From Gammaproteobacteria bacterium (lineage in GTDB: Bacteria; Pseudomonadota; Gammaproteobacteria; Eutrophobiales; Eutrophobiaceae), in contig QNEM01000002.1 of the NCBI GenBank assembly GCA_003645215.1, positions 1 to 53,652 on the forward strand: a DNA stretch of 53,652 nucleotides, written 5' to 3'. Below the pieces are notes generated by a model that worked only from the letters and a program-made list of their open reading frames with translations, was not told the DNA's origin and did no database searches. The translations under genes and the position numbers were made by a program. This document shows positions 1 through 48,014 of this stretch, piece after piece. The first letter of the stretch is position 1; every line of letters begins with the position of its first letter.

Positions 1-1
1 G

Positions 2-646
2 GCATTTACCGGTCAGGCATTTATCACCACGGATCTGGATGATAATCAGATCACCGCTTTTCATCCGGGAGCCATGGATTATGCCCATGAGAACACGGTA
101 TTTGATGCAGAGGGGATAAGTATTGGCATAATTTCACCGGATGGGCGCGATGGCATGATTCAACATGCCAGTCAATTTGTAGAAGCAGATATTCCTTTTG
201 TGTTTGATCCCGGACAAGGTTTGCCTATGTTTACGGCAGAGGATCTTAAAAACTTTTTTAAACAGGCGACATGGATCACCGTGAATGATTATGAATGGCA
301 GATGATGCAGGAAAAGACTGATATGACTCCTCACGATGTTGCAGAGCTGGTAGATGCATTAATCGTGACCAAAGGTGGTGAAGGATCATTAATTTATACA
401 ACTGAAAAACGTTATGAAATACCCAGCGCCACACCATCAATACTTGAAGACCCTACAGGTTGTGGTGATGCCTATCGCGCAGGCCTGTTATATGGCCTGA
501 TGAATGATATGGACTGGGAAACCACAGGACGAATTGCCTCACTCATGGGCGCTATAAAAATTGAATGCCATGGCACGCAGAACCATTCGTTTACCATGGA
601 TGAATTCAAAGCTCGATTCAAAGAAGCCTTTGAACGGACTATGTGA
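2..646 (+). CDS. PfkB-family carbohydrate/nucleoside (adenosine-type) kinase, 5' end cut by window edge
   Basis: The frame of ORF 74..646 stays open back to nt 2 (AFTGQAFITTDLDDNQITAFHPGAMD...). C-terminal PfkB signature DPTGCGDAYRAGLLYG. TGA stop at 644-646. Confidence 0.85.
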   Translation, partial: AFTGQAFITTDLDDNQITAFHPGAMDYAHENTVFDAEGISIGIISPDGRDGMIQHASQFVEADIPFVFDPGQGLPMFTAEDLKNFFKQATWITVNDYEWQMMQEKTDMTPHDVAELVDALIVTKGGEGSLIYTTEKRYEIPSATPSILEDPTGCGDAYRAGLLYGLMNDMDWETTGRIASLMGAIKIECHGTQNHSFTMDEFKARFKEAFERTM

Positions 647-712
647 AGCGTTAAAAGTGAAGAGTGAAACGCAATCTTAATACTTTTCACGTTTAACACT
701 TAACGTTTCACC
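643..712. repeat. Heptamer-word inverted-repeat element, copy A (GTGAAG/GTGAAA left arm, TTTCAC right arm)
   Basis: Left arm is atGTGAAGcgttaaaaGTGAAGaGTGAAAcg and right arm is aCTTTTCACgtttaacacttaacgTTTCACc. It shares the core ACTTTTCAC(G/A)(T/C)TT with the copies at 20945 and 38118. The first GTGAAG word contains the pfkB-family stop codon. Confidence 0.7.
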
Positions 713-760
713 TTATGGTTTTCTGCTCCCGTCCGCGCTTATAGTGCACGAAGTCGATAC
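708..760 (-). pseudogene. Relic of a malate synthase G 3' end (last ~15 codons plus stop)
   Basis: nt 721-755 match nt 12972-13006 (the real glcB 3' end) at 31/35 positions in the same orientation. The minus-strand translation DFVHYKRGREQKTIR* compares with glcB EFVLYKRRREQKNI*. Similarity fades further upstream. Confidence 0.6.
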
Positions 761-929
761 ATACTGTGCATTCACCTATATCTCGATCAACATCGGCTTA
801 GTTGATCTAAATCAATTCATTTTTGTGTGACTCTACTAGTCTCGTATGTATGTGCCTCCAGTTTATATAGCTGGGAAGGGCGGGTGTGATGGATGTTCTG
901 TCTTTATTAATAATAGGAGATCATTGATT

Positions 930-1271
930 ATGACAGTACCAGTTATTGAGATAAGTGGAATAGGACCAAAAGCAGCGGAATATCTAAGAAATAACGGGAT
1001 TTTTACTGCTGAGGACTTGCTCAAAGATGGCATTAACTGTCTACAGCAGGTACCGGGGTTTGGTAAAAACAGGGCAGAACAAATACTGGAAGTAATTACT
1101 GTCACGCTCGGTCTTGGCGGTAAAAAATCCAGCGCAAAGCCTGACAAGAAAAAGAAGAAAAAAAGCAAAGATAAAAATAAGAAAAAGTCCGGCAAGAGAA
1201 AGTCTGGCAAGGATAAGAAAAAAAGAGATAAGAAAGGTAAGAAGAAGGATAAGAAAAAAAAGAAAAAGTAA
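930..1271 (+). CDS. Helix-hairpin-helix (2x HhH) protein with a poly-lysine C-terminal tail (histone H1-like)
   Basis: ATG at 930 lies 9 nt after AGGAGA (915-920) and is preferred over the listed 846 start. HhH motifs are ISGIGPKAAEYL and VPGFGKNRAEQIL. By my count the last 49 residues hold 31 K and 2 R. Confidence 0.7.
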   Translation: MTVPVIEISGIGPKAAEYLRNNGIFTAEDLLKDGINCLQQVPGFGKNRAEQILEVITVTLGLGGKKSSAKPDKKKKKKSKDKNKKKSGKRKSGKDKKKRDKKGKKKDKKKKKK

Positions 1272-1337
1272 AGTAAGGTAGAAATTCTAAAAGTCATAGC
1301 TAACACATTAATAAACAGAGATCCTGGGAGATTGAAC

Positions 1338-2222
1338 ATGCCAAAAAATAAAGGCAATAATGCTGAGGCAAACATGAAGGATAAAGTGGACGAAGGGATC
1401 ATGACAGATGGTGAAGTTGATCCAAAACTGCTTGCAAGGAAAAAGAAAAAGCTACCGACGGAATTCTACGAAAAGGAATTGTTCAGGCTTCAGGTAGAAA
1501 TGGTAAAACTTCAGGAATGGATCAAGGAGAAAGACCTGAAGGTTGTGGTTATATTTGAAGGACGTGATGCAGCAGGAAAGGGTGGTGTCATAAAGCGCAT
1601 CACAGAGCATCTGAACCCTCGCGTCTGTCGTATAGCAGCATTACCTGCCCCATCGGAACGGGAAAAAACCCAATGGTACTTCGAGCGATACACTAATTAT
1701 TTGCCATCTGCAGGCGAGATGGTTTTGTTTGACCGTAGCTGGTACAACCGGGCAGGGGTAGAGGTAGTGATGGGATTTTGTACCGATGATGAACACCAGG
1801 AATTTCTGCGTTCCTGCCCGGAATTTGAGCGCATGCTGGTTCGATCCGGGATTATCCTGATTAAGTACTGGTTCTCTGTCAGTCATGGGGAACAGGAAAA
1901 ACGTTTTCAGGGCCGTAGAAAGCAACGGCACAAGTATTGGAAACTAAGTCCCATGGATATGGAATCCAGGGCACGCTGGAAAGAATATTCCAAGGCCAAG
2001 GATGAGATGTTTGCCCATACTGATATCAAGCAGGCACCCTGGTACGTTGTACCGTCGGACGACAAGAAGCGTGCACGACTCAACTGCATGGCACATCTGT
2101 TAAGTATGATCCCGTATGAGGATCTGGTGCCGGAAATTCCGAAACTACCGGCCCTGGGTGATATAGGTGGATATGTTCGCTCGCCTATGCACGATCAGAC
2201 GTTTGTCCCGGAGCTATACTAG
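1338..2222 (+). CDS. ppk2: Polyphosphate kinase 2 (PPK2 family)
   Basis: P-loop FEGRDAAGKGG, FDRSWYNRAG and WKLSPMD motifs typical of PPK2. ATG 1338 lies 7 nt after GGGAG; the listed ORF starts at TTG 1332. Confidence 0.9.
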   Translation: MPKNKGNNAEANMKDKVDEGIMTDGEVDPKLLARKKKKLPTEFYEKELFRLQVEMVKLQEWIKEKDLKVVVIFEGRDAAGKGGVIKRITEHLNPRVCRIAALPAPSEREKTQWYFERYTNYLPSAGEMVLFDRSWYNRAGVEVVMGFCTDDEHQEFLRSCPEFERMLVRSGIILIKYWFSVSHGEQEKRFQGRRKQRHKYWKLSPMDMESRARWKEYSKAKDEMFAHTDIKQAPWYVVPSDDKKRARLNCMAHLLSMIPYEDLVPEIPKLPALGDIGGYVRSPMHDQTFVPELY

Positions 2223-2248
2223 GGAACCGTAAAGAAAACCGGCATATC

Positions 2249-3691
2249 TCACATAAAGAATAGCCGGAGGCCATAAAAGAACGCAATAGCAAGCGCAGCA
2301 CCGGCCGGTATCGTAATCACCCATGAGATAATAATCTCCCGGACGATGCTGAAATTAACAGCGCCAATACCACGGGCGAGACCAACACCGAGAACAGCTC
2401 CAACGAGGGTGTGGGTCGTCGAGATCGGCAGGCCAAGCTTGGTCGCTATAACAATAGTCGTGGCAGCACCGAACTCTGCGCAGAATCCCCTGGTAGGGGT
2501 AAGTTGGGTGATCTTATGACCAATTGTTTCCATTACCCTCCAGCCCCAGGTCGCGAGTCCGATAACAATACCGATACCTCCAAGACCGAGCACCCACAGG
2601 GGAACTGGTGATTCTGCAGCGATACTGGCCCCTCCCGCCATGGCAACGGATATAACCGCCGACATGGGTCCGATTGCATTAGCAACGTCATTTGCCCCAT
2701 GGGCAAAAGCAACTAATGAGGCACTCAGGATCTGAAGATAGACAAAAAGTTTTTCTACCCTTTGATACTCTACGGTATTGGTATGGAATTCATATTTTCG
2801 TTGAGACTCGAAGCGAAGCCGTTTGACTTCGTCTAAGGTATCAGAGAGTTCTCTTTTCATACGTTTTGGTGCAGTAGAATGTACTCGCTCGAGATGTTTA
2901 ATCGCTTTTTCAAGCGCCTTTACGACGCTGGGGTCAGTTACAGCCTCTTGATCATCTTGTTTATCTTCCCCTTCCTGATCTGGCATTAGCGATACCAGCC
3001 ATAGACTAATCAGTGATGCAAGCAGACCTACACCCATGGCAACAACAAGGGCTTCTGGCAGATTTAGATCTAGATTCAGGTTCTTCAGGCCTTTAAAGAC
3101 CAGTGCCAGTGACAATATCGCGAAAACAGTAAAAACAATATAGGGCGCTAACTTTTTTGCAGCTCGAAGTGGATGGTGTTTAAAAAAGATGTGGCGTAAC
3201 AAGAGACGAAAGATGAGGTAGGAAATGATACCACTGAGTAGTGGTGAGACGATCCAGCTCAGGGCTATTTGTCCAACCATGTCCCAATGGACGGCAGAAA
3301 TTCCACCGTAAGCAACACCAAAACCGATCACAGCACCAACAATAGAGTGAGTTGTCGATACCGGCCATCCTTTCAGTGATGCAAATTGTAGCCAAACACC
3401 GGCAGCCAGGAGGGCAGCAAGCATACCGAGCATGAACGACAGGCCGTCACCGGCAAAGAGTGCAGGATCCACGATCCCCTTACGTACCGTCTCAGAGACA
3501 TGCGAGCCGGCCAGGAACGCCCCGCTGAATTCCAGGATTGCGGCTAAAATAACCGCACGGCGTATGGTCAGTGCACCGGAACCGACCGAGGTACCCATGG
3601 CATTGGCGACATCATTGGCACCAATGCCCCAGGCCATATAAAGCCCGAAAATAATTGCCAGGACAAGGATAATGAGAAACTGCGTTTCCAT
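2249..3691 (-). CDS. pit: Inorganic phosphate transporter, PiT family
   Basis: Two PHO4 repeats, each with the GANDVAN signature (GIGANDVANAMGTSVG, HGANDVANAIGP). Polytopic, with a charged central loop. Confidence 0.92.
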   Translation of the reverse strand: METQFLIILVLAIIFGLYMAWGIGANDVANAMGTSVGSGALTIRRAVILAAILEFSGAFLAGSHVSETVRKGIVDPALFAGDGLSFMLGMLAALLAAGVWLQFASLKGWPVSTTHSIVGAVIGFGVAYGGISAVHWDMVGQIALSWIVSPLLSGIISYLIFRLLLRHIFFKHHPLRAAKKLAPYIVFTVFAILSLALVFKGLKNLNLDLNLPEALVVAMGVGLLASLISLWLVSLMPDQEGEDKQDDQEAVTDPSVVKALEKAIKHLERVHSTAPKRMKRELSDTLDEVKRLRFESQRKYEFHTNTVEYQRVEKLFVYLQILSASLVAFAHGANDVANAIGPMSAVISVAMAGGASIAAESPVPLWVLGLGGIGIVIGLATWGWRVMETIGHKITQLTPTRGFCAEFGAATTIVIATKLGLPISTTHTLVGAVLGVGLARGIGAVNFSIVREIIISWVITIPAGAALAIAFFYGLRLFFM

Positions 3692-3738
3692 TGCTTAATC
3701 GTTATGTCTGATTGTGTTGATTATTTACTGGATGTAAT

Positions 3739-4413
3739 TTAATGGGATTCAAGTGTCATGCGAACCGAAGATGTAAGTTCCTCACATCGATCCGCGAGAC
3801 GTGCAACTTGCCTGATAATGCTGGTCCACAGGAAAAAATCACCGTGTGATATATCATCCTCGTGTGCCAGCATACTGCGTAACAATTCTCTCTGGATGAC
3901 ATCTGTTTCGTACTCTTTGTGTGCGACCTTGTCGACGAGTTCCTGGACGGTCTGTGCCTGAATACCACCAAAACCTGTTTCCAGAAGTTCGTCCAACTGG
4001 GCAATGACGCTGTGTGTCAATGTAAATGCTTCAAGGCTTTTGCTTACCAGGTCATTGAAGCCTGTTTCAAATCCTTCAAAGGTGTTGGCCTGCTTGAAGG
4101 TGAGTAACACAGCGAGATTCTCGGCACGGTTCGCTATGCTGTCCTGAACCTTGAGTATACGCAGGAGGTTCGCACGATCGACAGGCATAAATATGCCTCG
4201 CGGTAGATTGTTACGTATATCGTGTTTAATAAGATCTGCGGCGTGCTCCAGACGCGAGATTTTTTTTGCGAGAGATTTGACTTCAGACTTATCCTGACGA
4301 TGGTAGGCATCTATTATCTCCGGAATTTTAGCCACACATTCAGCCACTTTTTCCATATGCATTTGTAATGGAACAAAGGGAGATCGGCCAAAAACTTTTG
4401 CTATGCTACGCAT
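3739..4413 (-). CDS. DUF47/TIGR00153 PhoU-like phosphate transport regulator (PiT partner)
   Basis: 224-aa helical protein directly upstream of pit in the same operon. This is the classic ykaA-pit type pairing, and the sequence looks like the PhoU-like DUF47 family. Confidence 0.85.
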   Translation of the reverse strand: MRSIAKVFGRSPFVPLQMHMEKVAECVAKIPEIIDAYHRQDKSEVKSLAKKISRLEHAADLIKHDIRNNLPRGIFMPVDRANLLRILKVQDSIANRAENLAVLLTFKQANTFEGFETGFNDLVSKSLEAFTLTHSVIAQLDELLETGFGGIQAQTVQELVDKVAHKEYETDVIQRELLRSMLAHEDDISHGDFFLWTSIIRQVARLADRCEELTSSVRMTLESH

Positions 4414-4466
4414 GGTAGTGCTCCTCTATACAGGGATGAACGACATACAAGATTACAAGTATGGTA

Positions 4467-6005
4467 CTATTTTTCAAATTGGTCACTAGAAACATTATTA
4501 CTGGACTCTTCATTAATTTTCAGCTTGTAAGCTGTTGCAGAGACATAAGCAGCTTCTGTTTCAATATCTATCTCTGTTAATGGATGGTCATCAAGCCAGT
4601 TTTCAGGAAAAATAATCTTTAAATAATTATTCCCTGCTTTAAGTTTAAATTCTGGCAGTGCATCGGAAGATCTGCTGCGATGCAGGAGGATTGAAAACCT
4701 GACAATGATACACAAGCGCAGTATTCGATCGATATTATTTTCCGACATAGATTGAATTTCTTCTAATGGAAATTTGCGCCGATGGCTACGTACCAAAATG
4801 GCAAGTTCTGCCTGTGTCTGCCTTGAAAAGCCAGGCATATCAGAATGGTTTATCAGATATGCTCCATGCCTGTGATACTGGCTGTGAGCAACTGCAATTC
4901 CTATTTGATGTAATCTGATTGCCCATTTGATTAATTTCAGATCCTGCTTCTTGTCAAGTTGCCAATCAGCTTGTACTTGATCAAAACAATTCCTGGCAGT
5001 TATTTCTATTAATTTTACATGGTCTATATCTACAGAATAGCGGGCCATAAAATTATTAACTGTTGCGACCCGAACATCCTTGTTTTGAACCCTGCCTATC
5101 AAATCATGCAGTAAGCCCTCTCGTAGTGCCCCATCAGAAATAGATATTGATTCCAGATCGAGTGCCTCAAACACAGCAGATAATACCGCAACACCTCCAG
5201 GCAATATGGACTTCTGATTATTTGGAATAGATTCAAATCTGAGTTTCTTGATATGGCCTGCATTTATCATAACATCTGTTAATTTATCCAGAGATTCCCT
5301 GGTAATGCCAACATCACACCAGGATTTTTCCATGGCTATCTCATTTATTCTCAGGACTGCACCTGATGCTCCAAGCGCAACTTCCCATCCCATATTTTTA
5401 TATATTGTTCCTATTGTCTCCAGCTCCTGTCGACAGTGTAAAATAGCCTTGCACATTTTCTTTGCCGTGATTTCCCCATCATTGAAATAACGTTTGCTGA
5501 CACTGACAGAGCCCATATAAAGGCTTTCAGACAATATTGGCTCATAGCCCTGGCCAATAATGATTTCTGTACTACCACCGCCGATGTCAACAACAAGACA
5601 CTTTTTATTGTCCTGGAAAGCAGAATGAGCCACTCCCAGAAAAATTAACCGGGCTTCCTCAATACCTGAAATGATTTCTATCGGATGATCCAGTGCCAGT
5701 CTGGCTTTGTTTAAAAAAATATTACTATTGATTGCCAGTCGTAGGGCATTGGTTCCGACAGCATGTACATTCTCGTGAGGAATCTCATTTATCCTTTGAC
5801 CAAACCTCTCTAAAGCCTTCAGGGCATCTTCCATGGTTTCATCGCTAAGCATATTATGCTTATCAAGGCCACCAGCAAGTCTGACCGTGTCTTTAATGCG
5901 ATCAATTACCTGAATTTGATTATTATCGTTCTTGGCAACGATCATATGAAAGCTGTTTGAGCCTAAGTCGATAGCAGCATATATGTTGGGTTCAGATAGT
6001 GACAT
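4467..6005 (-). CDS. ppx: Exopolyphosphatase (Ppx/GppA family)
   Basis: ASKHA-fold motifs AIDLGSNSFHM and VVDIGGGSTE. 512 aa with a C-terminal HD-like helical domain. Confidence 0.92.
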   Translation of the reverse strand: MSLSEPNIYAAIDLGSNSFHMIVAKNDNNQIQVIDRIKDTVRLAGGLDKHNMLSDETMEDALKALERFGQRINEIPHENVHAVGTNALRLAINSNIFLNKARLALDHPIEIISGIEEARLIFLGVAHSAFQDNKKCLVVDIGGGSTEIIIGQGYEPILSESLYMGSVSVSKRYFNDGEITAKKMCKAILHCRQELETIGTIYKNMGWEVALGASGAVLRINEIAMEKSWCDVGITRESLDKLTDVMINAGHIKKLRFESIPNNQKSILPGGVAVLSAVFEALDLESISISDGALREGLLHDLIGRVQNKDVRVATVNNFMARYSVDIDHVKLIEITARNCFDQVQADWQLDKKQDLKLIKWAIRLHQIGIAVAHSQYHRHGAYLINHSDMPGFSRQTQAELAILVRSHRRKFPLEEIQSMSENNIDRILRLCIIVRFSILLHRSRSSDALPEFKLKAGNNYLKIIFPENWLDDHPLTEIDIETEAAYVSATAYKLKINEESSNNVSSDQFEK

Positions 6006-6025
6006 TTATATAAATAGCAGGAGGT

Positions 6026-7651
6026 TTAATGTTTAACCAGGCTGGCCTTTGTTTTAGATACTTGTCCGATAGTACTATGTAATTTCCGCTGAGATGCAAT
6101 AATATTTTTGTATAGTACAGAATTTGATGGTGACGAAAATTTCCTGAATTTTACATCAAATGCTGATCTTACCTTTTTATTACGTATTGCGAGTCTTGTC
6201 ACCAGCATCTCTATTGCCTTTCTGGTCTCCAGGTCTATTCCAGTTTCATTTTCCATGTCTGATATAAAATGCTGTAATGAATCCTGCTGCACCTGTAAAT
6301 CCTGAAACTCCCCCAGATTGTCCTGCAGATCTTTCAGGTTTCCTATTAATTTTCGCATTTTGTTTTCAGGATAAAGGTTCTGAAAAAATTCATTCAGATA
6401 ACGTAGTTTTTTACATGTCTTACGCAATTCATGAAGTAAGGTAGCAGGAGAATCAGCAACGATGATATTGCCCTCTTTGTATGCCTTGCGGTAGGCACGC
6501 CAGACATGTTCACTGGCAACATTAACAATAGGCAGGTTTGCATTCTTTAGCATTGAATGCTTCGGAGCAGGGGTCTTGAGAAATTTTTCCCAGTCCTGTT
6601 TGAGTTTACGATAACGTACACTGTTCAGGACCTTTACAAGCTGATCATGCTCTTTATGCCTGTGCCGTTGCAGGAACTCGTATAAGGGGGTAATGTCTTC
6701 ACGTACATCTGCCGGTAATTTCTTTTTATATTCATTAAATGACAACAGATAAACATCCATATCACGAGCGGGTCCGCTTACTTCACCAAGCCAGGCAAAA
6801 TCCCTTTTGAACCTTGTTATCCGACGTTTGGGTAATACATTTCTGATTTGACTCAACAAAGAACGGGTGCGACGAACCGCAACGCGGAAATCATGCAGAA
6901 ATTCTGAATCAATGTCTTCTATGATCCCGTTTTCGTTATCTTTCATGGTTTCCAGTAATTGGTAGAAAATATTTTTAACTGCTGTATCTGCACGCTGATC
7001 AGGATCGCTTACTGTTATTATTTGAAGTTTTCTTCCCGGTTCCTTTGCATAATGTTTCAAGGTGGTGATAAGCGGGTCATCAGACAATGGGACAAGATGG
7101 CACTCTTTCTGTAATAAGCGACATGCTTTTTTTATTACCCCTTTATTACCCTTGATTGGGTATAAATGAACGCGCTTGCCAATATTTATATTGCTTTGAT
7201 TATTTTTTACGCAATCATCTTTAGATGGGCAATCACGCTGAAATTCTATACGTAATATGATCTTTCCCTGATCATCATGGACATACGCAATGTGAATACG
7301 CGTAGCAACAGTAGCAACCGGTAACAGGGCACGAAACTCCAATATTTTCTCAAGCTTTGTCTTGATGTCCGATTCTCCCAGATCCCAGACAAATCCTGGA
7401 ATTTGGTCAATTGGGCACCTGCCGTACACTTGTTCTGCTCCCAGTGGACGCCAGGTGAGCCAATTTCCTATCTCATCCATAGCTGATTCCAATACACTAC
7501 CTGCACTGAATATTCGCCAGTCGAATGTATCCAGATAGGTACGGGTAATTACATTAGGCTCCTGAAATTGCAGATTGAGATTTTGCTTCAAAAAAGCCTC
7601 CACCTGCCTGATGGAACCATTCCTGGGTATCTTGAAGATAGTTGTTTTCAC
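6026..7651 (-). CDS. CHAD domain protein with an N-terminal CYTH-like domain (no obvious ExExK motif)
   Basis: CHAD-type basic helices (HDFRVAVRRTRSLL, LHELRKTCKKLRYL). The N-terminal ~200 aa resembles CYTH-CHAD proteins (TYLDTFDWRI) but lacks an N-terminal ExExK. Confidence 0.82.
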   Translation of the reverse strand: MKTTIFKIPRNGSIRQVEAFLKQNLNLQFQEPNVITRTYLDTFDWRIFSAGSVLESAMDEIGNWLTWRPLGAEQVYGRCPIDQIPGFVWDLGESDIKTKLEKILEFRALLPVATVATRIHIAYVHDDQGKIILRIEFQRDCPSKDDCVKNNQSNINIGKRVHLYPIKGNKGVIKKACRLLQKECHLVPLSDDPLITTLKHYAKEPGRKLQIITVSDPDQRADTAVKNIFYQLLETMKDNENGIIEDIDSEFLHDFRVAVRRTRSLLSQIRNVLPKRRITRFKRDFAWLGEVSGPARDMDVYLLSFNEYKKKLPADVREDITPLYEFLQRHRHKEHDQLVKVLNSVRYRKLKQDWEKFLKTPAPKHSMLKNANLPIVNVASEHVWRAYRKAYKEGNIIVADSPATLLHELRKTCKKLRYLNEFFQNLYPENKMRKLIGNLKDLQDNLGEFQDLQVQQDSLQHFISDMENETGIDLETRKAIEMLVTRLAIRNKKVRSAFDVKFRKFSSPSNSVLYKNIIASQRKLHSTIGQVSKTKASLVKH

Positions 7652-7888
7652 AGCTTATTCTTTATATGAAAATTGGCAATCCACACAAAACTCCTTAACT
7701 GGATATATAGCTGGAAGATTAAGTAATTTCTGTTGTTTTTTCATTGACCTGAATCAACATCATGCCAAACACTACCGAAAAGTGCCTTGTTAAGCCCCTC
7801 TACGTGTGTTTCCTCACGTTCAGGCAAAAGTTGGAAAGTGTAGAATATCAGGTAATATTGACCTGTTTAAAATTGCAATAGGCAAACA

Positions 7889-8407
7889 ATGAAACGCAGC
7901 CTACTTATCATGCGTCATGGGAAATCTGACTGGAATACCGACAGTCACTCAGACTTCGAACGCCCACTTGCTAAACGTGGCCAGAAAGCAGTGAAGCGTA
8001 TTGGCCAATGGCTAATACAGCAGAAATTGACCCCCGACCACATCATCAGTTCTCCAGCCAATCGCGCACAACAAACAGCAATCGGAATATGCCGGAAACT
8101 AAAGCTTGCCGAATCAAGCATTACCTGGGAGTCGAGGATTTATGGAGCAGAAATGCAAACACTACTCGATGTGCTGGCTGCATGCCCAGCAGAGAAACAG
8201 AGGGTCATGTTAATCGGTCATAATCCTGGTCTTGAGATGTTGCTTCGCTATCTTGCAGTTGACACATTTGAAACCTCTCATGGTCACAATCCCATGCCCA
8301 CTGCAGCACTGGCTTCCCTGGATATGCCGGATAACTGGGAGGATTTAGATGCGGGTGCCGGGGAACTGATTTCTATTATCTACCCCCGTGAACTTGCAGA
8401 TATCTAA
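7889..8407 (+). CDS. sixA: SixA-type phosphohistidine phosphatase (histidine phosphatase superfamily)
   Basis: LIMRHGKS catalytic motif, SPANRAQQT and LIGHNPG motifs; 172 aa. Confidence 0.85.
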   Translation: MKRSLLIMRHGKSDWNTDSHSDFERPLAKRGQKAVKRIGQWLIQQKLTPDHIISSPANRAQQTAIGICRKLKLAESSITWESRIYGAEMQTLLDVLAACPAEKQRVMLIGHNPGLEMLLRYLAVDTFETSHGHNPMPTAALASLDMPDNWEDLDAGAGELISIIYPRELADI

Positions 8408-8450
8408 TATTCCCTTTAACTAAAATATAATAGAAATCTCTGTTTAATAT

Positions 8451-10712
8451 CTATAATGCATCCTGCCTGACGTTTCTGTGGCTGATTACCCTGGTTTTCC
8501 GTTTCTTTAGGCGCAGCGCTTCCTTCTGTCTTTCTTCTGCCTCCTGTATCAGTTTTTCCTGACTACCCAAAGCTGTTTCATCAGTTGGTATACGCTTGAT
8601 GTAGCTTCCATCCGATTGCATATCCCAGGCATTACGTTGATCCGCGAGGTGGATATCTAATATGGTGCGTAGTTTTTCCTGTAGTGCCGGGGTATCCACT
8701 ATCACAGCTACTTCAACCCGGTGTTCCAGATTACGTTTCATTAAATCTGCTGAGCCTATGTAATACTCTTCATCACCACCATTGTGGAAATAACAGATAC
8801 GGCTATGTTCAAGGAACCTGCCAACGATACCCATAACACGTATGTTTTCCGAGATGCCCTGTATGCCGGGACGCAGTCGGCAAGTATCACGAATTATGAG
8901 GTCGATATGTACACCAGCCTGTGATGCTTCATATAGCCCACGAATTATATCGGCGTCTTCCAGTGCATTCATTTTAAACTGGATCAGACCATTCTTATTT
9001 TCCGAATGTTGTTCTATTTCTCGCTTGATCTTGCTGAGCAGGGCACGTTTCAGCATCTTGGGTGACGGAATAATCTTTCGATAATTACGTTTTGGCGTGT
9101 AGCCTGTAGTAAGGTAATTGAACAATTCAGTAAGATCCTGACCAATGATCCGATCATCGGTCAACAAACCGATGTCAGTGTACAGTCTCGCAGTACCAGC
9201 GTGATAGTTACCGGTTCCGATGTGCGCATACCGGCGCAGTCCATCATAATCATTGCGTACTACCAGTATTACCTTACTGTGAGTCTTGAGACCCAGCACG
9301 CCATAAGTCACATGAATACCAGCTTCTTCCATTCTGTTTGCCCAACGTATATTGGCCGCCTCATCAAATTTGGCTTTTAATTCAACTACAACTGCCACCT
9401 GTTTGCCGTTACGCGCGGCACTAATAAGATACTCAATGACTTTGGTATCACTGGAAGTACGATAAAGCGTCATTTTAATGGCAAGCACCTTGGGATCACG
9501 GCTCGCTTCTTTCAGAAACCGCTCTACAGAAGTAGAAAATGATTCGTATGGATGCTGGAGTAAAATCGATCCCGAATCACGGATAGTATAAAAAATACTT
9601 GGAGAACCCTTTAACTTGGGATGATCGACTGGATGATGTGGTACGTAGTGAAGCTCTGGATTCTCCAGCGATGCCAATTGAAATAAATCGGCCATTGCTA
9701 TCATGCTACCTGTTTCAAATACATCAGTAGATTCATCCAGGCCCAATTCTGCGGCGAGCATCCCTCGGCGTTCAGGATTCATATCTTTTTCGGTTACAAC
9801 ACGTACGATGCGTGAGAATTTACGGTCTCGTAATTCGGATTCGATCAATTCCAGAAGGTCATCAGCCTGATCTTCATCTTTCTCCGTATTGGCATTGCGA
9901 ATCACATTGAATAATTCACATGCCTGAATTTCCATTTTTGGGAAGAGCAGGTCAAGATTATTGGAAATAACATCTTCCAGAAGAACAAATTTTGTGGAAT
10001 CGTCTATTTTGAGAAATCGGGGGATGCCGCTACCTATCGGCACCTTTACCCGCGCAAGTAATGATTCGTCGTCATCAGGATAGTTGAGCGTAACCAGCAG
10101 GTTTAAGGATCGATTGGAGATAAAAGGAAAAGGATGTGCAGGGTCCATGGCCTGTGGTGTAACCAGCGGAAAAATATTCTCCATGAAAAAATCACGCACT
10201 ATCTTTTTATTATCTTCATCAAGCGTGTCATATGAGAGTACACGAATGTCGTGCTCCTCAAGTTCTTTCAATAATTGTGGTAGTAGCAGATCTGTCTCAG
10301 CTTCAATGTTACGAACAACATCGTAGCATTCATTGATCTGTTCCTGGGGCGTGCGCCCGTCATCAGTTAAATCATGTACTCCTGCACCTACCTGCAATTT
10401 CAGTCCACCAATACGCTTCATGAAAAATTCGTCCAGATTGGATCCGATAATTGCCAGGAATTTTATTCGCTCCAGAAGTGGAGTATTCGGGTCTTGAGCC
10501 TCATGCAAGATGCGCCAGATAAATTCGAGCCAGGTTAATTCACGATTTAGATAATACTCGGTAGATGTCGGGTCATAATCGACTGCCTGCTCGATATCCT
10601 GAGTCTCGCTGGTAAGCGTAGACGAATCGGGGCTTTCATCTGAACTTTCCAATAGATGAAGTGATTCTACATTCTGATTTTGTGACTTCTGTCGCATGTC
10701 TGCCATTATCAA
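8451..10712 (-). CDS. ppk1: Polyphosphate kinase 1, with a ~45-aa acidic Ser/Thr-rich N-terminal extension
   Basis: 753 aa. YYLNRELTWLEFIWRILHEA aligns with the E. coli PPK N-terminus. PLD-like C-terminal domains are present (GLKTHSKVILVV, RFLEHSRI). Confidence 0.95.
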   Translation of the reverse strand: MIMADMRQKSQNQNVESLHLLESSDESPDSSTLTSETQDIEQAVDYDPTSTEYYLNRELTWLEFIWRILHEAQDPNTPLLERIKFLAIIGSNLDEFFMKRIGGLKLQVGAGVHDLTDDGRTPQEQINECYDVVRNIEAETDLLLPQLLKELEEHDIRVLSYDTLDEDNKKIVRDFFMENIFPLVTPQAMDPAHPFPFISNRSLNLLVTLNYPDDDESLLARVKVPIGSGIPRFLKIDDSTKFVLLEDVISNNLDLLFPKMEIQACELFNVIRNANTEKDEDQADDLLELIESELRDRKFSRIVRVVTEKDMNPERRGMLAAELGLDESTDVFETGSMIAMADLFQLASLENPELHYVPHHPVDHPKLKGSPSIFYTIRDSGSILLQHPYESFSTSVERFLKEASRDPKVLAIKMTLYRTSSDTKVIEYLISAARNGKQVAVVVELKAKFDEAANIRWANRMEEAGIHVTYGVLGLKTHSKVILVVRNDYDGLRRYAHIGTGNYHAGTARLYTDIGLLTDDRIIGQDLTELFNYLTTGYTPKRNYRKIIPSPKMLKRALLSKIKREIEQHSENKNGLIQFKMNALEDADIIRGLYEASQAGVHIDLIIRDTCRLRPGIQGISENIRVMGIVGRFLEHSRICYFHNGGDEEYYIGSADLMKRNLEHRVEVAVIVDTPALQEKLRTILDIHLADQRNAWDMQSDGSYIKRIPTDETALGSQEKLIQEAEERQKEALRLKKRKTRVISHRNVRQDAL

Positions 10713-10991
10713 ACTTTCTCTCTATATATATCATTGACTTAGATCAATAATTTTTTGAAATAGCACCAAAAAGGTGGATCCTGTATTTACTAGCAAAAAA
10801 ACAGAAATATCATTCGGCTGGAATGGTGCTACACAAAAACTTTACCGTTTATATATCGCTAGTATAGGGGGTTCCCCCGATAATTTCCTTATTCTACAGC
10901 AGATTAAGTCATTTATCGGTGAAATTTCATCATGTTCTATAATATTTCGATACTCAAACCTGACGTAAGAACATAAATTGAAGATCAAAAA

Positions 10992-12779
10992 TCAGGCAGC
11001 TTCTTTAATTTGAATGTTGATGTCTTCTTCCTCTTTGAAGAAGACTTCTTCAAGTTGTCTATATTCAGAACCAATGATTACAAGATATTTGGCTGCCTTG
11101 AGCAGCAAGCGGTAGATTTCCAGAACCGAGGAACTGCAGGTAATCAGGGATACACCTTGTTCAGGTGTTATTTTCTTTTCCCTGATCAAGCGGTCAATAT
11201 CCAGCAGCAGGGTATTATCGTCGGATTCTGCCGAGCTCTTGATTCCACCCAGAAGGGTATCGCATTCATGGAAAAATATTTCCTCATCATCCTTCAGGAA
11301 TGTTCTGAGTAATCTGATCACCGCACATTTTAATTTCAAATATTCATTATTAAGAACGGTATTCTTGTCACTCTTGTGCCTGGCGATCTCTGATGTCAGT
11401 GTCTTGACATGAAGTAGTATTTCCATTGCATCGCGATGAATCTTCTTTAGCCGGGTTACGCGTTCATTGTCTTCACGTGCAAGCTGGAACTTTTCCTGAA
11501 TTGAAGAAGCAAAATTCAAGACCTCGCTGTAGATTGGTTGAATACGCATTTTAATAAACTCCTCCTGTTTAATGCCTGGATGCGCCTTCGCCTTTACAAT
11601 CTCTTCAATAGGTTTGTCTGATTTAATATCCTTACGATGAACACCAAGACTATGTGCAATTGCTTCAATGATAGCCTCCTGGTAAAGACGGCGGGTTTCT
11701 TCCAGCAGGGCCTTAATTGCAGTTTCCGGATATTTCAGGGCCTGTTTATTCAGGTATTTTGGTTTTGAAAACACGGGCTCCGGCTTAACTTTCTCGGGGA
11801 GAATAAAGATAACCAGATTTGCTATGATCGTGACGCACCAGATCAGAAGCAGGGTATTCAGCACGTTAAAGGTACTGTGAAACAGTGCCAGACCAATGGG
11901 AATATCCGTAGCAACAACAAGAGGGTTCGCACCCATTAATTCAAAAGCCAGTTTGTCTATTATGGCCAGATACGGGACAAACAATATCAATATCCAGGTC
12001 ACACCAATCACATTAAATATAAGGTGAGCGAGGGCGGCACGTCTTGCCTCGGTGCTGGAGATCGCCGCCGCCAGGTTTGCGGTAATGGTTGTACCGATAT
12101 TTTCACCAAGGACAATGGCCGCTGCTGCTTCAAAGGTGAGAACACCCTGGCTCGCTGCAACCAGCGTAATCGCCATGGTGGCACTGGAAGATTGCAAGAT
12201 TAGCGTCAATATGGTGCCTATGAGCACAAACAACATAATACCAAGAGCACCCCGTTCAGTGTTGCGTTGGAAGAACTCAAACAATTCAGGATTGTTGTCC
12301 AGACCCGTTATGGCATCCTTCATGAATTCGAGGCCAATAAACAGCAGGGCAAAACCGATAATGAAATTACCGAGGGCATTCAATTGACGATCTTTTTTCA
12401 GGTAAAAGATCAAGCCGACGATGATCATGGGGACGACTATGGAACTCATCTTTACCTTGAAACCGAGAACCGCAATCAGCCAGGCAGTAAAGGTGGTGCC
12501 GATATTAGCGCCCATAATCACGCTGATTGCTTCGGTCAGGCTTAACAACTGGGCGTTTACAAAGCTGACCACCATAAGTGTGGTCGCGGAGGAGGATTGA
12601 ATCAGGCCGGTAACAAATAAACCCGTGAGTACGCCTTTGAACCGATTCGATGTTAACTGAATCATGACTTTGCGCATCTTATCCCCGGCCAAATCCATCA
12701 GCGCGTCACTCATGACCTTCATGCCATAAAGAAACAGCGCCAGGGAACCAAGTAAATTAAGAAACTCAAAAAATCCCAT
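10992..12779 (-). CDS. Na+/phosphate cotransporter family protein (NptA/YjbB-like) with a C-terminal PhoU-like domain
   Basis: Duplicated Na_Pi_cotrans repeats carry QSSSAT signatures (LIQSSSATTL, ILQSSSATMA), followed by a ~230-aa soluble helical tail. Confidence 0.9.
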   Translation of the reverse strand: MGFFEFLNLLGSLALFLYGMKVMSDALMDLAGDKMRKVMIQLTSNRFKGVLTGLFVTGLIQSSSATTLMVVSFVNAQLLSLTEAISVIMGANIGTTFTAWLIAVLGFKVKMSSIVVPMIIVGLIFYLKKDRQLNALGNFIIGFALLFIGLEFMKDAITGLDNNPELFEFFQRNTERGALGIMLFVLIGTILTLILQSSSATMAITLVAASQGVLTFEAAAAIVLGENIGTTITANLAAAISSTEARRAALAHLIFNVIGVTWILILFVPYLAIIDKLAFELMGANPLVVATDIPIGLALFHSTFNVLNTLLLIWCVTIIANLVIFILPEKVKPEPVFSKPKYLNKQALKYPETAIKALLEETRRLYQEAIIEAIAHSLGVHRKDIKSDKPIEEIVKAKAHPGIKQEEFIKMRIQPIYSEVLNFASSIQEKFQLAREDNERVTRLKKIHRDAMEILLHVKTLTSEIARHKSDKNTVLNNEYLKLKCAVIRLLRTFLKDDEEIFFHECDTLLGGIKSSAESDDNTLLLDIDRLIREKKITPEQGVSLITCSSSVLEIYRLLLKAAKYLVIIGSEYRQLEEVFFKEEEDINIQIKEAA

Positions 12780-12904
12780 AGACGATTAACCCCTACTTGT
12801 ATGTAAAGGTATAACTCAGATCGCTAAAATAATTATTGATTCAGATCAAATCATTCGGTTTCAGTGGGGAAATTGATTCGATGATCCGTCGGCACAGCTC
12901 GATA

Positions 12905-12953
12905 GTAGTTAGTAGGTGGTAGGTAGGTTTTCCCTACATGCCACCTACTACCT
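12905..12953. repeat. Heptamer-word hairpin (TAGTAGG/GTAGGTR words) immediately downstream of glcB
   Basis: TAGTAGGTGG (12910-12919) pairs perfectly with CCACCTACTA (12941-12950). An inner GTAGG/CCTAC pair is also present. The left arm reads as tandem heptamers tagtagt-tagtagg-tggtagg-tagg. Confidence 0.65.
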
Positions 12954-12961
12954 GCAACATA

Positions 12962-15142
12962 CTAAATATTCTTCTGTTCCCGTCTGCGCTTATAGAGCAC
13001 GAACTCCGTATAACCATTGGCTTGCTCAAGTCCTTCAAAGACCAGGTCCAGGGCAGCTTGAAACGGGATACTGTTTTCGAAATCTACTGACATCTGTTTG
13101 TATTCTTTGTCGTCTCTGTTCTGTCGATCAACAATGACGGCCATACGTTCCATTGCTGAACGCACATCCTCTCTTGTGACGATTTTATGGTGAAGCCAGT
13201 TAGCAATATGCTGGCTGGAAATACGTAAGGTCGCGCAATCTTCCATCAAGGCAACGTCATTGATATCGGGCACCTTGGAACAGCCTACACCTTGACCAAC
13301 CCAACGCGATACATAGCCCAGAATTCCCTGTGCATTATTTTCCAGTTCGTGTCGAATCTCTATTGCCGTTAATTGCCTATCCTTGTTCATCACCGGGATA
13401 TCGAGGATTTCATCAACAGGAACCTGTTTGGCTTTCATTAAGGCATGTTGACGGCTATGTACATTTAACTTGTGATAATGAATAGCGTGTAGTGTTGCCG
13501 CAACAGGAGACGGAACCCACGATGTATTGGCACCCGCCTTCAGGTGTTGGATCTTGGTTCTCATCATATTGCCCATTTCTTCTGGCATGGCCCACATACC
13601 TTTGCCAATCTGGGCTTTGCCTTCAAGTCCGCAGCTTAATCCTACCTGGACATTGGATTCCTCATAGGCCGTTAGCCATTTGGCCTGTTTTATTTCTGCC
13701 TTGGGGATTATTGGCCCTGCTTCCATATTGGTGTGGATGTCATCGCCGGTACGATCCAGAAAACCTGTATTAATGAAAACAAGCCGATCTTTGGCAGCAT
13801 TGATGCAGGCTTTCAAATTCACCGACGTACGTCGTTCTTCATCCATGATGCCTAGCTTCAAGCTGTTTCGTTCAAAACCCAGGGCGTCTTCAACGCGTTC
13901 AAATAAGTCATTGGCCAGTGCAACTTCCTCCGGGCCGTGCATCTTGGGCTTAACGATATAAACGGATCCCGTTCTGCTGTTACGTAATTTCGAGTTACCC
14001 AACAAATCATGTTTTGCAGATAAAGCCGTGACCATGGCATCGAGCATAGTTTCCGGAATCTCTTCTCCCTTATAAAGCACTGCATCTGTATTCAGATGCA
14101 TACCAACATTACGTACCAATGCCAGACTTCTTCCATGTAAGGTGACTTCCTTGCCATCAGTGCCGATATATTTTCTATCCGGTTCCATAGTACGTTCAAT
14201 GGTTTCATCATCTTTAACAATGGTGCGTACCAGTGTGCCTTTCATCAAACCCAGCCAGTTTTTGTAGACCTGAACTTTATCTTCGGTATCGACAGAGGCC
14301 ACCGAATCTTCGCAGTCCATGATTGTAGTAACAGCCGATTCCAGAGAAATATCATAAATTTTAGCGTGATCACGGCGGCCGATAAAATAGCCATCACCAA
14401 ATTTAATTTCTAAATGCAAATTGTGGTGGCACAGTAAAACTGCATCAGGATTATCCGGTTCTCCGGTGTAACCAATAAATTGTTGCGGTTTAAGTAATGT
14501 TGTTTCACTACCATCACCAAATTTCACGGTGAGTTGATTGTTATTGATAAAATATTTCGTCACATGTTTGTGCGTATCTCTTTCCAGGGCAAAGTGTCTG
14601 TCTAAAAGATGCCGCGCACGTACGATGACTCGTTCACCACGAATCGGATTATATTTATTAATATTTCTACAGCCGTTTGCTTCTGAAATAGTATCTGTTG
14701 AGTAGAAAGCATCATAGATACTACCCCAACGTGCATTAACGGCATTTAGTACATAGCGTGCATTATCGAGTGGGACAACCAGTTGTGGACCTGCAACTTT
14801 TGCAATTTCCAGATCAACATTGCTGGTACTAATACTGAAACTTTCACCTTCCGGGACAAGATAGCCAATTTCCTGTAAGAACTTTTTATAGGCTTCCGGA
14901 TCATGTTTTTCATTCCGATTGGTTATATGCCATTCATCGATTTGTTTCTGTAGTTGATCGCGTTTGGCTAATAGTTCGGTGTTTCTTGGCTGCAGTTCGC
15001 TAACGATTTTTTCAAGCGAAGACCAGAAGTCATTAACTTCGACACCGGTTTCAGGAATAACTTCAGTTGCTATTAAATTGTACAGGTCTTCAGCGATATC
15101 AAGATCGCCTGCTTTCTTATAATTCATATCTCTACTCTTCAT
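12962..15142 (-). CDS. glcB: Malate synthase G
   Basis: 726 aa with MDCEDSVASVD, GIMDEERRTSVNL and NTGFLDRTGDDIHT motifs characteristic of the G isoform. Confidence 0.95.
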   Translation of the reverse strand: MKSRDMNYKKAGDLDIAEDLYNLIATEVIPETGVEVNDFWSSLEKIVSELQPRNTELLAKRDQLQKQIDEWHITNRNEKHDPEAYKKFLQEIGYLVPEGESFSISTSNVDLEIAKVAGPQLVVPLDNARYVLNAVNARWGSIYDAFYSTDTISEANGCRNINKYNPIRGERVIVRARHLLDRHFALERDTHKHVTKYFINNNQLTVKFGDGSETTLLKPQQFIGYTGEPDNPDAVLLCHHNLHLEIKFGDGYFIGRRDHAKIYDISLESAVTTIMDCEDSVASVDTEDKVQVYKNWLGLMKGTLVRTIVKDDETIERTMEPDRKYIGTDGKEVTLHGRSLALVRNVGMHLNTDAVLYKGEEIPETMLDAMVTALSAKHDLLGNSKLRNSRTGSVYIVKPKMHGPEEVALANDLFERVEDALGFERNSLKLGIMDEERRTSVNLKACINAAKDRLVFINTGFLDRTGDDIHTNMEAGPIIPKAEIKQAKWLTAYEESNVQVGLSCGLEGKAQIGKGMWAMPEEMGNMMRTKIQHLKAGANTSWVPSPVAATLHAIHYHKLNVHSRQHALMKAKQVPVDEILDIPVMNKDRQLTAIEIRHELENNAQGILGYVSRWVGQGVGCSKVPDINDVALMEDCATLRISSQHIANWLHHKIVTREDVRSAMERMAVIVDRQNRDDKEYKQMSVDFENSIPFQAALDLVFEGLEQANGYTEFVLYKRRREQKNI

Positions 15143-20892: not shown

Positions 20893-20944
20893 TGCACTTG
20901 AAATTGCTCCTGCATTTCAAGTATTTCCACCATCCATGGCGGTC

Positions 20945-21008
20945 AAGTGTTAAATATTAAAGGTGAAGGGTACAATACTTTTCACACTTCACCTTTAACA
21001 TTCCACTT
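20945..21008. repeat. Heptamer-word inverted-repeat element, copy B
   Basis: A perfect 12-bp stem pairs TTAAAGGTGAAG (20957-20968) with CTTCACCTTTAA (20987-20998). An outer AAGTG/CACTT pair is also present. The loop carries the family core ACTTTTCACAC. Confidence 0.7.
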
Positions 21009-32754: not shown

Positions 32755-34098
32755 ATGAAATCATTAATTAGTAGTTTTAAAAATCATAGGGGCTTAACAG
32801 GCCTCTATGTATTAATGGCGGGGCTGTTCGTACCATCTCTGGCCATGGCTGATGATCTGAATACTGGTGATACGGCCTGGATGATTACCGCAACCGTACT
32901 GGTCTTGTTTATGACGATCCCCGGATTGTCATTGTTCTATGCAGGTATGGTCAGGAGCAAAAATGTACTATCAGTATTAATGCAGTGTTTCGCGATTACC
33001 AGTCTGATGTCTATTCTGTGGGTTGTCTATGGTTATAGTATGGCCTTTGATACAACGGGTATGGAAGCCGGCGTCCTTAATATGAGTTCATTTATAGGGG
33101 GTCTTGGTAACTCATTCATGTCGGGAATCAAGGTTGATTCAATGACAGGTACGGTACCAGAATCTGTATTTGCAACATTTCAAATGACATTCGCGATTAT
33201 TACGCCTGCACTTATCGTTGGTGCATTCGCCGAGCGTATGAAATTTTCAACCATGTTGGTGTTTATGACAATCTGGGTAACTGTTTGTTATGTGCCTATG
33301 GTTCATATGGTTTGGTCTGGTGACGGTGCATTAATGTGGGACTGGGGTGTAATTGATTTTGCCGGTGGTACTGTTGTGCATATTAATGCAGGTATTGCTG
33401 GACTGGTCGCTGCGGTAATGTTGGGTAAGCGTAAAGGTTTTCCAACCACTGCCATGCCACCACATAACCTGACTTACACAATCATCGGTGCAGCAATGCT
33501 GTGGGTTGGTTGGTTTGGTTTTAATGCCGGTTCCGCAGTCGCTGCTAACGGCACAGCAGGTATGGCCATGCTGGTAACGCAGATAGCAACAGCAATGGCA
33601 GCTTTAACCTGGATGTTTGTTGAATGGATAAGACACGGGAAGCCGAGCGTCCTTGGTATCGCCTCTGGCGCGGTTGCCGGTCTGGTTGCAATTACACCAG
33701 CATCAGGATCAGTTGGTCCACAGGGTGCACTCTTGATTGGTATTGCAGCTGGTGGCGGTTGCTTCTTTGCGGCAACCTCACTTAAGCGAGCCCTGGGTTA
33801 TGATGATTCACTGGATGTATTTGGTGTCCATGCCGTTGGTGGCATTATCGGTGCGATCCTTACCGGTATTTTTACCGATGTGTCCTGGGGTGGCTCTGGT
33901 TTGGCTGATGGTGTATCAATTGCTGGCCAATTGTGGATACAGACTAAGGGTGTATTGTTTACCATTATCTATACGGGTACTTTGAGTATTGTTATTCTTA
34001 AGGTGCTGGATGTTGTTATGGGACTTCGTGTAGCCGAAGATGAAGAGTCAGAGGGGCTGGATCTTGCCGCTCACGACGAACGTGGTTACATCTTGTAA
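32755..34098 (+). CDS. amtB: Ammonium transporter AmtB, copy 1
   Basis: 447 aa with a signal peptide, plus DFAGGTVVHINAG and WFGFNAGS Amt signatures. Confidence 0.95.
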   Translation: MKSLISSFKNHRGLTGLYVLMAGLFVPSLAMADDLNTGDTAWMITATVLVLFMTIPGLSLFYAGMVRSKNVLSVLMQCFAITSLMSILWVVYGYSMAFDTTGMEAGVLNMSSFIGGLGNSFMSGIKVDSMTGTVPESVFATFQMTFAIITPALIVGAFAERMKFSTMLVFMTIWVTVCYVPMVHMVWSGDGALMWDWGVIDFAGGTVVHINAGIAGLVAAVMLGKRKGFPTTAMPPHNLTYTIIGAAMLWVGWFGFNAGSAVAANGTAGMAMLVTQIATAMAALTWMFVEWIRHGKPSVLGIASGAVAGLVAITPASGSVGPQGALLIGIAAGGGCFFAATSLKRALGYDDSLDVFGVHAVGGIIGAILTGIFTDVSWGGSGLADGVSIAGQLWIQTKGVLFTIIYTGTLSIVILKVLDVVMGLRVAEDEESEGLDLAAHDERGYIL

Positions 34099-38139: not shown

Positions 38140-38220
38140 AGAGTGAAGAGTGAAGGGTAAAACGACTCTTCCTATATTGTGCTTTAAACTTTTCACGTTT
38201 CACCTTTCACTCTTCACTTC
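38118..38220. repeat. Heptamer-word inverted-repeat element, copy C: (AGTGAAG)x5 left arm, TTCAC-word right arm
   Basis: Five tandem AGTGAAG units occupy 38121-38155. The right arm is CTTTTCACGTTTCACCTTTCACTCTTCACTTC (38189-38220). The element fills the whole gap between convergent aroE and dctM. Confidence 0.8.
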
Positions 38221-47483: not shown

Positions 47484-48014
47484 CTATTGCTGTTGAAACC
47501 AGTCATCGGATTCTGGTTCATACACCTGAATGAATTCTTCAAGATCTTCTTTCTTTACCATACCGGGCCAACGGGCAACGAGCTTACCATCGGGATGAAA
47601 GAAATAGGTAGTAGGGATTGCTTTCAGGTGTTTGCCACCTACCTTCGATGCAAGCTCCTGGTCACCCATAAGTATGGGGAAGCTGATATCGTGTTTCTTG
47701 ATAAAAGCAGTTGCCAGTTTTTTCTTCCCGTATTTAAAGCTTGGGTAATCAATCGTTATCCCCAGGACTGTTGCATCTGTATCACGGTGTTTAAGATGAA
47801 ATTTATTCAAGTCGGGCATTTCGACAACACACTGGATACAGGTCGGACTCCAGATATTCACCAGCGTCCATTTACCATGGCCAATATATTCTGAAATACT
47901 GTGATAATTACCGTTCAGGTCTTCAAGGGCGACATCAGGGGCCTCTGCCTGGCTTGATTCAGCCAGGAAGACAAGCAGAAAAGACAGCAGTGATATCTTC
48001 AGACTTGGGGGCAT
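47484..48014 (-). CDS. TlpA/ResA-like periplasmic thiol:disulfide oxidoreductase
   Basis: Signal peptide and a thioredoxin-fold CXXC motif, WSPTCIQC. Confidence 0.85.
   Translation of the reverse strand: MPPSLKISLLSFLLVFLAESSQAEAPDVALEDLNGNYHSISEYIGHGKWTLVNIWSPTCIQCVVEMPDLNKFHLKHRDTDATVLGITIDYPSFKYGKKKLATAFIKKHDISFPILMGDQELASKVGGKHLKAIPTTYFFHPDGKLVARWPGMVKKEDLEEFIQVYEPESDDWFQQQ

Follow-up and report, generated by a model that had tools for sequence, protein, structure and literature searches.

A duplicated 3' end of malate synthase G as the probable scar of a polyphosphate gene block gained without a visible mobility gene

In contig QNEM01000002.1 from an uncultured marine-sediment gammaproteobacterium (positions 1-53,652 of the forward strand; this whole 53,652-nt stretch is referred to below as the window) a phosphate/polyphosphate (polyP) block of nine genes and 12.2 kb (756..12961) lies between two direct copies of the 3' end of glcB, the gene for malate synthase G. 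We consider it very probable that this repeat is the scar of an insertion at the glcB 3' end. As to how the block came to be there, we favor, with rather less assurance, an account in which a one-off insertion that used no integrase was followed by homologous exchange among relatives.

The repeated gene end and the occupancy of the glcB-pfkB site

A repeat search of the window recovered the pair of segments to which the original prediction had drawn attention, namely 721-755 and 12972-13006, which are in direct orientation and identical at 31 of 35 positions (89%). The significance test against shuffled sequence that had been called for was run, and 40 shuffles under a first-order Markov model yielded no pair with at least 31/35 identities; in the window itself the only other direct 35-mer pairs at this level are those between two paralogous ammonium-transporter genes. 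These tandem genes (32755-34098 and 34647-35936) share stretches with 73-77% nucleotide identity, which constitute the other long direct repeats of the window. A dispersed repeat had been named as an outcome that would undo the argument; with up to three mismatches allowed, there are no further copies of the repeat 35-mer within the window.

The right copy (12972..13006, minus strand) lies inside the last 15 codons of functional glcB (EFVLYKRRREQK...) and is, as proposed, a genuine gene end: the intact open reading frame (ORF; 12962..15142, minus strand) encodes a malate synthase G of 726 aa with all four of the Pfam domains MS_N, MSG_insertion, MS_TIM-barrel and MS_C, and its C-terminus reads EFVLYKRRREQKNI followed by the stop. 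The left copy (721-755) falls within a minus-strand relic of the glcB 3' end (708..755) that retains 15 codons and a stop, reading DFVHYKRGREQKTIR with the stop codon at 708-710 (alignment score 50, matched by 0/500 shuffles). If small indels are allowed, the homology continues upstream for about 10 nt more, to about 765 and into the NGYT codons, and stops there against the promoter of the first block gene, which codes for an HhH protein; the earlier description of a gene-end relic with similarity decaying upstream is thus borne out. The left repeat copy represents a pseudogene remnant of the malate synthase G gene resident at this site. On its far side lies the 3' two-thirds of a gene for a pfkB-family (adenosine/nucleoside-type) kinase (1..646, plus strand), which is truncated by the window start and is convergent with glcB in the ancestral arrangement.

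We then examined the corresponding site in relatives. Scanning a genome collection with glcB returned 80 loci, among which the relatives range from 55 to 97%; most derive from metagenome-assembled genomes of uncultured Gammaproteobacteria, some of them labelled Thiotrichaceae or Methylococcales, and the distant loci (57-60% and below) belong mostly to other taxa. In 25 of the 80 loci the pfkB-family gene is convergent with glcB and lies 35-116 nt downstream of it, and four more such empty sites (L097, L098, L099 and L100) emerged from the contexts of pfkB homologues. The predicted empty site, with the pfkB-family gene directly convergent with glcB, is therefore present in at least 29 relatives, and these relatives also show that a convergent glcB-pfkB arrangement, which had been put forward as an alternative origin of the repeat, is correct as the ancestral state.

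The same block is present at the same site in L029, L081, L084, L085, L090 and L091. The full set of block-bearers comprises L029 (glcB 97% identical at the amino acid level), L081 (a metagenome contig), L084, L085-L087, L090, L091 and L092, and in every one whose contig includes the flanks the block lies between glcB and pfkB. Likewise, all PPK1 relatives that are at least 86% identical and have flanks on their contig are at the glcB-pfkB site. The block was not seen at any other site among the relatives examined, and no donor locus was found among them. The more distant PPK1 relatives (69-77%) whose surroundings were inspected were considered as instances of the block elsewhere and rejected, as they occur in unrelated contexts (MgtC-PPK1-PPK2-SulP-CHAD, acetyl-CoA-synthetase-like-PPK1-LexA and PPK1-PHO4); so was L083, with a PPX of 45% and a PPK1 of 40% identity in a different small cluster. 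A metagenome scan with PPX gave three loci only.

By nucleotide identity of glcB to the window, the block-bearers L029, L091, L081 and L090 stand at 90-95% and the empty-site loci L100, L001 and L098 at 90, 89 and 88%, placing these empty-site loci at the same distance from the window as the block-bearers L090 and L081; the glcB of the block-bearing L085 is only 77% identical. The flanking order PEPCK-glcB ... pfkB-NnrU-TrAA12-UvrA is kept in both the block-bearing and the empty states. The same slot holds other cargo in two loci, a pgaABCD-like operon with an acyltransferase in L010 (12184-20013; 7.8 kb) and a Na/Ca exchanger gene in L046 (12169-14037; 1.9 kb), and a search for gene-end relics at these two cargo insertions found none. 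Block-bearing and empty states thus coexist at glcB nucleotide identities of 88-93%, and in having a fixed slot, presence/absence polymorphism among close relatives and mosaic flanks, the locus has the features of a flexible island exchanged by homologous recombination.

Junctions, hairpins and recombination mosaics

In the empty sites L002 and L097, the glcB tail, the hairpin and the pfkB end are collinear with the tail of the window relic, the GTGAAAC-word hairpin and the pfkB end of the window. In the same manner the L081 relic, its GTAGTAGG-word hairpin and its pfkB end align with the empty site L100, and the L081 relic matches its own glcB at 28 of 32 positions (0/500 shuffles). The functional tail of the window together with its GGTAGGT-word hairpin, for their part, match the tail and hairpin family of the empty site L098, in which the hairpin adjoins the pfkB stop codon. 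Both repeat copies thus have the appearance of native junctions, which suggests a joint duplication of gene end and hairpin. Furthermore, the relic-side junctions of five lineages (the window, L081, L091, L084 and L085) can be aligned, from the promoter of the HhH gene as far as the leading part of the relic, and this argues for a single origin of the insertion.

The relic has decayed in L091, L084 and L085, and in L091 and L085 it has no significant match to the lineage's own glcB. A comparison of the relic with 58 glcB tails gave 4-5 mismatches per 35 positions to L081, L090, L029 and the empty-site L098, 7 to L100 and at least 9 to the others; as it is nearest to the tails of its own narrow subclade, it derives from a resident-type allele and not from a distant donor. 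The two copies owe their 31/35 identity to descent from a single glcB allele specific to this subclade. An earlier explanation of this identity, conversion of the functional gene by the relic, had been prompted by the AT-type functional tails of L091 and L085 and was dropped because the empty-site L098 is natively of the GC type.

A mirror scar is present in L085 (6834-6881; also in L087): a stretch of 49 nt left over from the 3' end of pfkB, with its frame shifted, which matches the pfkB end of the window at 38 of 49 positions (0/500 shuffles). The order here is intact glcB tail, GTGAAAC hairpin, pfkB 3' relic and promoter of the Na/Pi cotransporter gene. Such a relic is the outcome expected of duplicative or illegitimate joins, and it admits two readings: either both gene ends were already copied in the original event, or the block reached L085 through a second illegitimate join. 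An extension of the L085 relic past the 49-nt core was not significant, and a candidate pfkB 3' relic at the glcB-side junction of the window (12780-12905) was rejected, given that 223/500 and 277/1000 shuffles score equally well.

The hairpins of heptamer words that had been noticed beside each repeat copy both fold well, with z values from -3.1 to -4.2. The first (643..712), built of GTGAAAC/GTGAAGA words, lies between the pfkB stop and the relic stop and is orthologous to the glcB-pfkB spacer hairpin of the empty sites L002 and L097; the segment 640-716 folds at -20 to -22 kcal/mol (z -3.1 and -4.2), and the element is probably a bidirectional terminator. The second (12905..12953), of GGTAGGT/GTAGTAGG words, lies directly downstream of functional glcB, with 12898-12962 folding at -24.8 kcal/mol (z -3.5), and its family adjoins pfkB in the empty sites L098 and L100 and stands behind the relic in L081. 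Turnover of these hairpins is very fast, orthologous spacers of close relatives carrying different families or a mere stub; one contig from a vent metagenome (run X3) is identical to the window pfkB end over 175/175 nt and then continues into another hairpin family. Heptamer-word hairpins between convergent genes are also found elsewhere in the window (20942-21006, 38117-38218 and about 47608-47645), and in relatives at L081 15464-15530 and at the glcB-side (left) junctions of L090 and L091. Heptamer repeats of another kind have been described from marine Beggiatoaceae (PMC4679880).

Several segments of the locus are mosaic. L001 (5275-8145) joins a window-like glcB body (89% nucleotide identity) to an L004-like tail, spacer and pfkB (69% amino acid identity); the pfkB body of the window is 90% identical at the nucleotide level to those of L091 and L081, and its last ~40 nt (600-646, ending in FERTM and the stop) are of the L097/L098 type; and in L091 (1690-1767) the glcB, 92% identical over the rest of its length, ends in an AT-type tail, an oddity that is better explained by imported sequence. 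These mosaics show frequent homologous recombination across the locus, and some of their breakpoints fall in or beside the short repeated gene ends.

Mode of insertion and competing explanations

We propose that in the ancestor glcB and the pfkB-family gene converged on one short spacer with a heptamer-word hairpin as their shared terminator. A single old insertion then placed the phosphate/polyP block between the glcB body and pfkB. This insertion duplicated the last ~50 nt of glcB and, as we infer, probably the spacer hairpin too, with the outcome that glcB kept a complete 3' end and a terminator, and a second, useless copy of the gene end was left stranded beside pfkB. The join itself was most likely a one-off duplicative recombination: incoming or ectopic DNA may have been joined illegitimately with the help of homology, or a circular fragment that carried the junction in copy may have entered by one Campbell-type crossover. 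Thereafter the block would have passed between related lineages, or disappeared from them, through homologous recombination in the core genes on either side, and the relic might have offered an extra patch of homology for the repeated swaps of tail, hairpin and pfkB-end alleles to which the mosaic patterns point.

When the entire window, with every ORF of the block, was scanned with Pfam and NCBIfam models, no integrase, transposase or other recombinase was detected, which confirms the earlier remark that none lies between the repeats; outside the block the window contains housekeeping genes. The called genes of the variant blocks in L084, L085, L090 and L091 are equally devoid of recombinases, and none is found in L081 among its tblastn matches and ORF list, a small ORF beside the inverted Na/Pi-type gene lying outside that scan. 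There is no tRNA or tmRNA gene in the window, and such a gene as the target was rejected, none being present in the window, L010, L017 or L046; the tRNA prediction did not accept a tRNA-like string in the L017 spacer. The block ends have no terminal inverted repeats and share only a 14-nt FNR-type box with an AT-rich flank. A transposon or insertion sequence would be expected to show a transposase, terminal inverted repeats and a target duplication of 2-14 bp; here the first two are absent and the duplication is at least 45 nt long. The comparison of composition with the flanks, as had been suggested, gave a divided answer. The tetranucleotide distance of the block (0.0094, as against 0.0097 +/- 0.0012 for other 12-kb segments) and its GC content (0.443 vs 0.441) equal those of the flanks, and two codon-level measures, given below, are slightly off.

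The original prediction had seen in the repeat the signature of a site-specifically integrated island. Its reading of the repeat as a scar and of the block as an insert stands, given the empty sites and the collinear junctions; the site-specific island is not supported, in view of the lack of an integrase, a tRNA, foreign tetranucleotide composition and a second site. In its classical form this explanation would have an island or prophage remnant whose attP carried the glcB 3' end, the two copies being attL and attR and the integrase having been deleted or acting in trans. Direct repeats of a gene 3' end that bracket the insert and leave glcB intact, the existence of empty sites in relatives and the icd/icdC-e14 precedent (PMC13626634) are all as it would have them. 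However, no recombinase was found in the window, in the blocks of L081, L084, L085 and L091 or in the partial ones of L029, L090 and L092; there is no tRNA and the tetranucleotide composition is native; both copies are of the same subclade allele instead of one host and one element allele; the duplicated stretch apparently takes in the whole hairpin and, in the case of L085, part of the gene on the opposite side, so that no defined core site emerges; and the block is never seen elsewhere. We regard site-specific integration as unlikely. The allele type and glcB-like orientation of the relic, along with the frequent recombination among glcB alleles at this locus, would fit a second full copy, that is, a glcB-block-glcB-hairpin-pfkB arrangement from which the second glcB was later deleted save for its last ~50 nt. 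This would call for one more duplication and one more deletion prior to the divergence of the lineages. In none of the five lineages does any more glcB-like sequence stand upstream of the relic, and in all five the relic front meets the conserved HhH promoter at the same point; we give it slightly less credence still.

The hairpins themselves could be implicated if a trans-acting recombinase (REP/RAYT-like, IS200/IS605-like or other) were to target them, inserting cargo and swapping cassettes. Both junctions adjoin such hairpins, the families differ at orthologous sites, even behind the identical 175/175-nt pfkB end, and L010 and L046 have other cargo at this junction. On the other hand, the window has no such transposase, REP/RAYT- and IS200/IS605-like enzymes are not known to make target duplications of ~50-110 nt, the cargo insertions in L010 and L046 left no relics, and slippage and recombination can account for the hairpin turnover; we consider a hairpin-directed event improbable. 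In a bolder version, to which we attach equally little probability, the glcB-pfkB spacer and other convergent spacers with heptamer hairpins in these uncultured marine Gammaproteobacteria would be hotspots of an unrecognised hairpin-directed mechanism, integrase-free or supplied in trans, that makes target duplications of ~50-200 nt and exchanges cassettes between identical flanks; if that were true, the polyP block would be its first traceable product. Chance similarity, or a dispersed repeat with no insertion at all, has only the shortness of the match in its favor. The empty result of the 40 shuffles, the lack of another window copy, the preserved frame and stop position, the orthology to empty-site gene ends and the conservation in L081 (28/32) leave it with next to no likelihood.

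Several points weigh against the integrase-free insertion that we favor. The block donor and the joining event are unobserved and the mechanism, as we infer it, is read from the scar alone. The loss of an integrase could also predate the divergence of the lineages sampled. At the glcB-side junction of the window group a pfkB relic is not detectable, and among the lineages compared only the L085 type has one. The glcB of L085, at 77% identity to the window as against 88-90% for the empty-site loci, means that a single origin needs later lateral transfer of the block or its repeated loss. Finally, the relative synonymous codon usage (RSCU) correlation of the block is 0.864 against a null of 0.92 +/- 0.02 (1% tail), and its GC content at third codon positions (GC3) is 0.441 against 0.405 (p=0.049); this mildly atypical codon usage could hint at a foreign origin or merely reflect membrane or highly expressed genes.

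The window sequence recurs with 0 differences in two sediment metagenomes (runs X1 and X2). No true excision joint was found in the contigs of 6 runs aligned with the window, contigs being unable to reveal rare forms. A 644-to-12903 joint in the vent run X3 was rejected as an excised or empty form, as it comprises just 22 nt of hairpin words and thus represents a hairpin polymorphism. Related strains are present in vent (X3, X4, X12), seep and marine-sediment (X5) metagenomes, and X1 holds a second relic variant, seen as a loose end before 768.

Comparison with known systems and gene content of the block

The closest formal parallel is the element e14 (also phage 21) at icd/icdC of Escherichia coli K-12, where, too, an insert in the 3' end of a metabolic gene leaves that gene intact by way of a second 3' copy, and a C-terminal pseudogene fragment remains at the far end of the insert; at icd/e14 the single gene can be re-established when the two copies recombine (PMC13626634, citing Hill et al. 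1989). Unlike the polyP block, e14 has its own integrase and excisionase, SOS-induced excision and a diverged, element-type icd end. The block, in contrast, has no recombinase, its cargo is purely metabolic, both copies are of the resident allele and the duplication seemingly includes the terminator hairpin. Homology-facilitated illegitimate recombination (HFIR) combines one homologous anchor with one illegitimate join, needs no mobility genes and can leave short duplications or deletions at the joint (PMC3240628). The glcB relic described here, the mirror pfkB relic of L085 and the lack of mobility genes would fit such an outcome, although HFIR has been shown experimentally for small inserts and the block is likened to it by outcome only.

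Marine flexible genomic islands are exchanged by homologous recombination via conserved flanks, usually without a scar. The present locus resembles them in its fixed slot between core genes, in its presence/absence pattern, in the other cargo found in the slot (the pga operon of L010 and the Na/Ca exchanger of L046) and in its mosaic flanks, and differs in having kept a trace of the original insertion, the relic, by which a single origin can be recognized. As for the cargo, the same gene families (ppk1, ppx, ppk2, pit-phoU and CHAD) are clustered in polyphosphate-accumulating bacteria. CHAD proteins have been described as polyP-binding granule proteins (PMC6537752), and a lateral gain of polyP genes has been put forward for Ca. 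Accumulibacter (PMC11361876).

Seen against these systems, the locus is a clean but fairly ordinary example of a metabolic block gained without a visible mobility gene. As a well-documented natural case, it shows a complete polyphosphate toolkit (PPK1, PPK2 and PPX, two phosphate importers, a PhoU-like protein, a SixA-like phosphatase and a CHAD granule protein) arriving in a genome as a single unit, in a defined slot and with its own regulatory boxes. As a physical marker of single origin, the relic allows gain, loss and allele shuffling of the block to be tracked in uncultured bacteria of sediments, vents and seeps, and with regard to phosphorus cycling in marine sediments the site shows which lineages carry the block and which do not. 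For genome scanning in general, a duplicated gene 3' end can serve as a reliable insertion scar, though it is insufficient alone to name the mechanism.

The region between the repeat copies is, as originally described, a phosphate/polyP block. In order, its nine genes code for the HhH protein (930-1271, plus strand), PPK2 (1332-2222, plus), a PiT/PHO4 transporter (2249-3691, minus), PhoU_div (3739-4413, minus), PPX (4467-6005, minus), the CHAD protein (6026-7651, minus), the SixA-like phosphatase (7889-8407, plus), PPK1 (8451-10712, minus) and the Na/Pi cotransporter (10992-12779, minus). Variants of this arrangement include a short block in L085, from which the SixA-CHAD-PPX-PhoU_div-PHO4 segment is missing, a PPK2 reduced to a 56-aa remnant in L084, and in L081 (2373-5230) the replacement of the Na/Pi gene by an inverted, distant (29% identical) one together with a small ORF.

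All four promoter regions of the block contain FNR-type boxes, two perfect and two with one mismatch. Perfect TTGAT-N4-ATCAA (FNR/CRP-type) boxes lie upstream of HhH-PPK2 (802..815) and of the Na/Pi cotransporter gene (12836..12849); they are the only 2 in the 53.6-kb window, where 0.19 would be expected, and both of these end boxes are conserved in L081, L084, L085 and L091. One-mismatch boxes are found in the divergent CHAD/SixA-like promoter region (7744..7757) and upstream of PPK1 (10734..10747). This pattern suggests that the block is one oxygen- or redox-responsive regulon under a regulator of the FNR/CRP family, the boxes being putative, and the nine-gene arrangement at glcB-pfkB with such boxes on every promoter appears to be found only in this clade. 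Sulfur bacteria accumulate polyP in the presence of oxygen and give off phosphate in its absence; the boxes on every promoter, which suggest that polyP turnover is coupled to the oxygen or redox state, agree with this physiology. The small HhH protein, which is always paired with PPK2, combines an (HhH)2 domain with a repetitive tail rich in Lys, Glu and Asp (repeats at 1146-1277) and has only sub-threshold matches, to the HhH regions of RuvA and RadA; we speculate that it could be a protein associated with polyP granules or the nucleoid.

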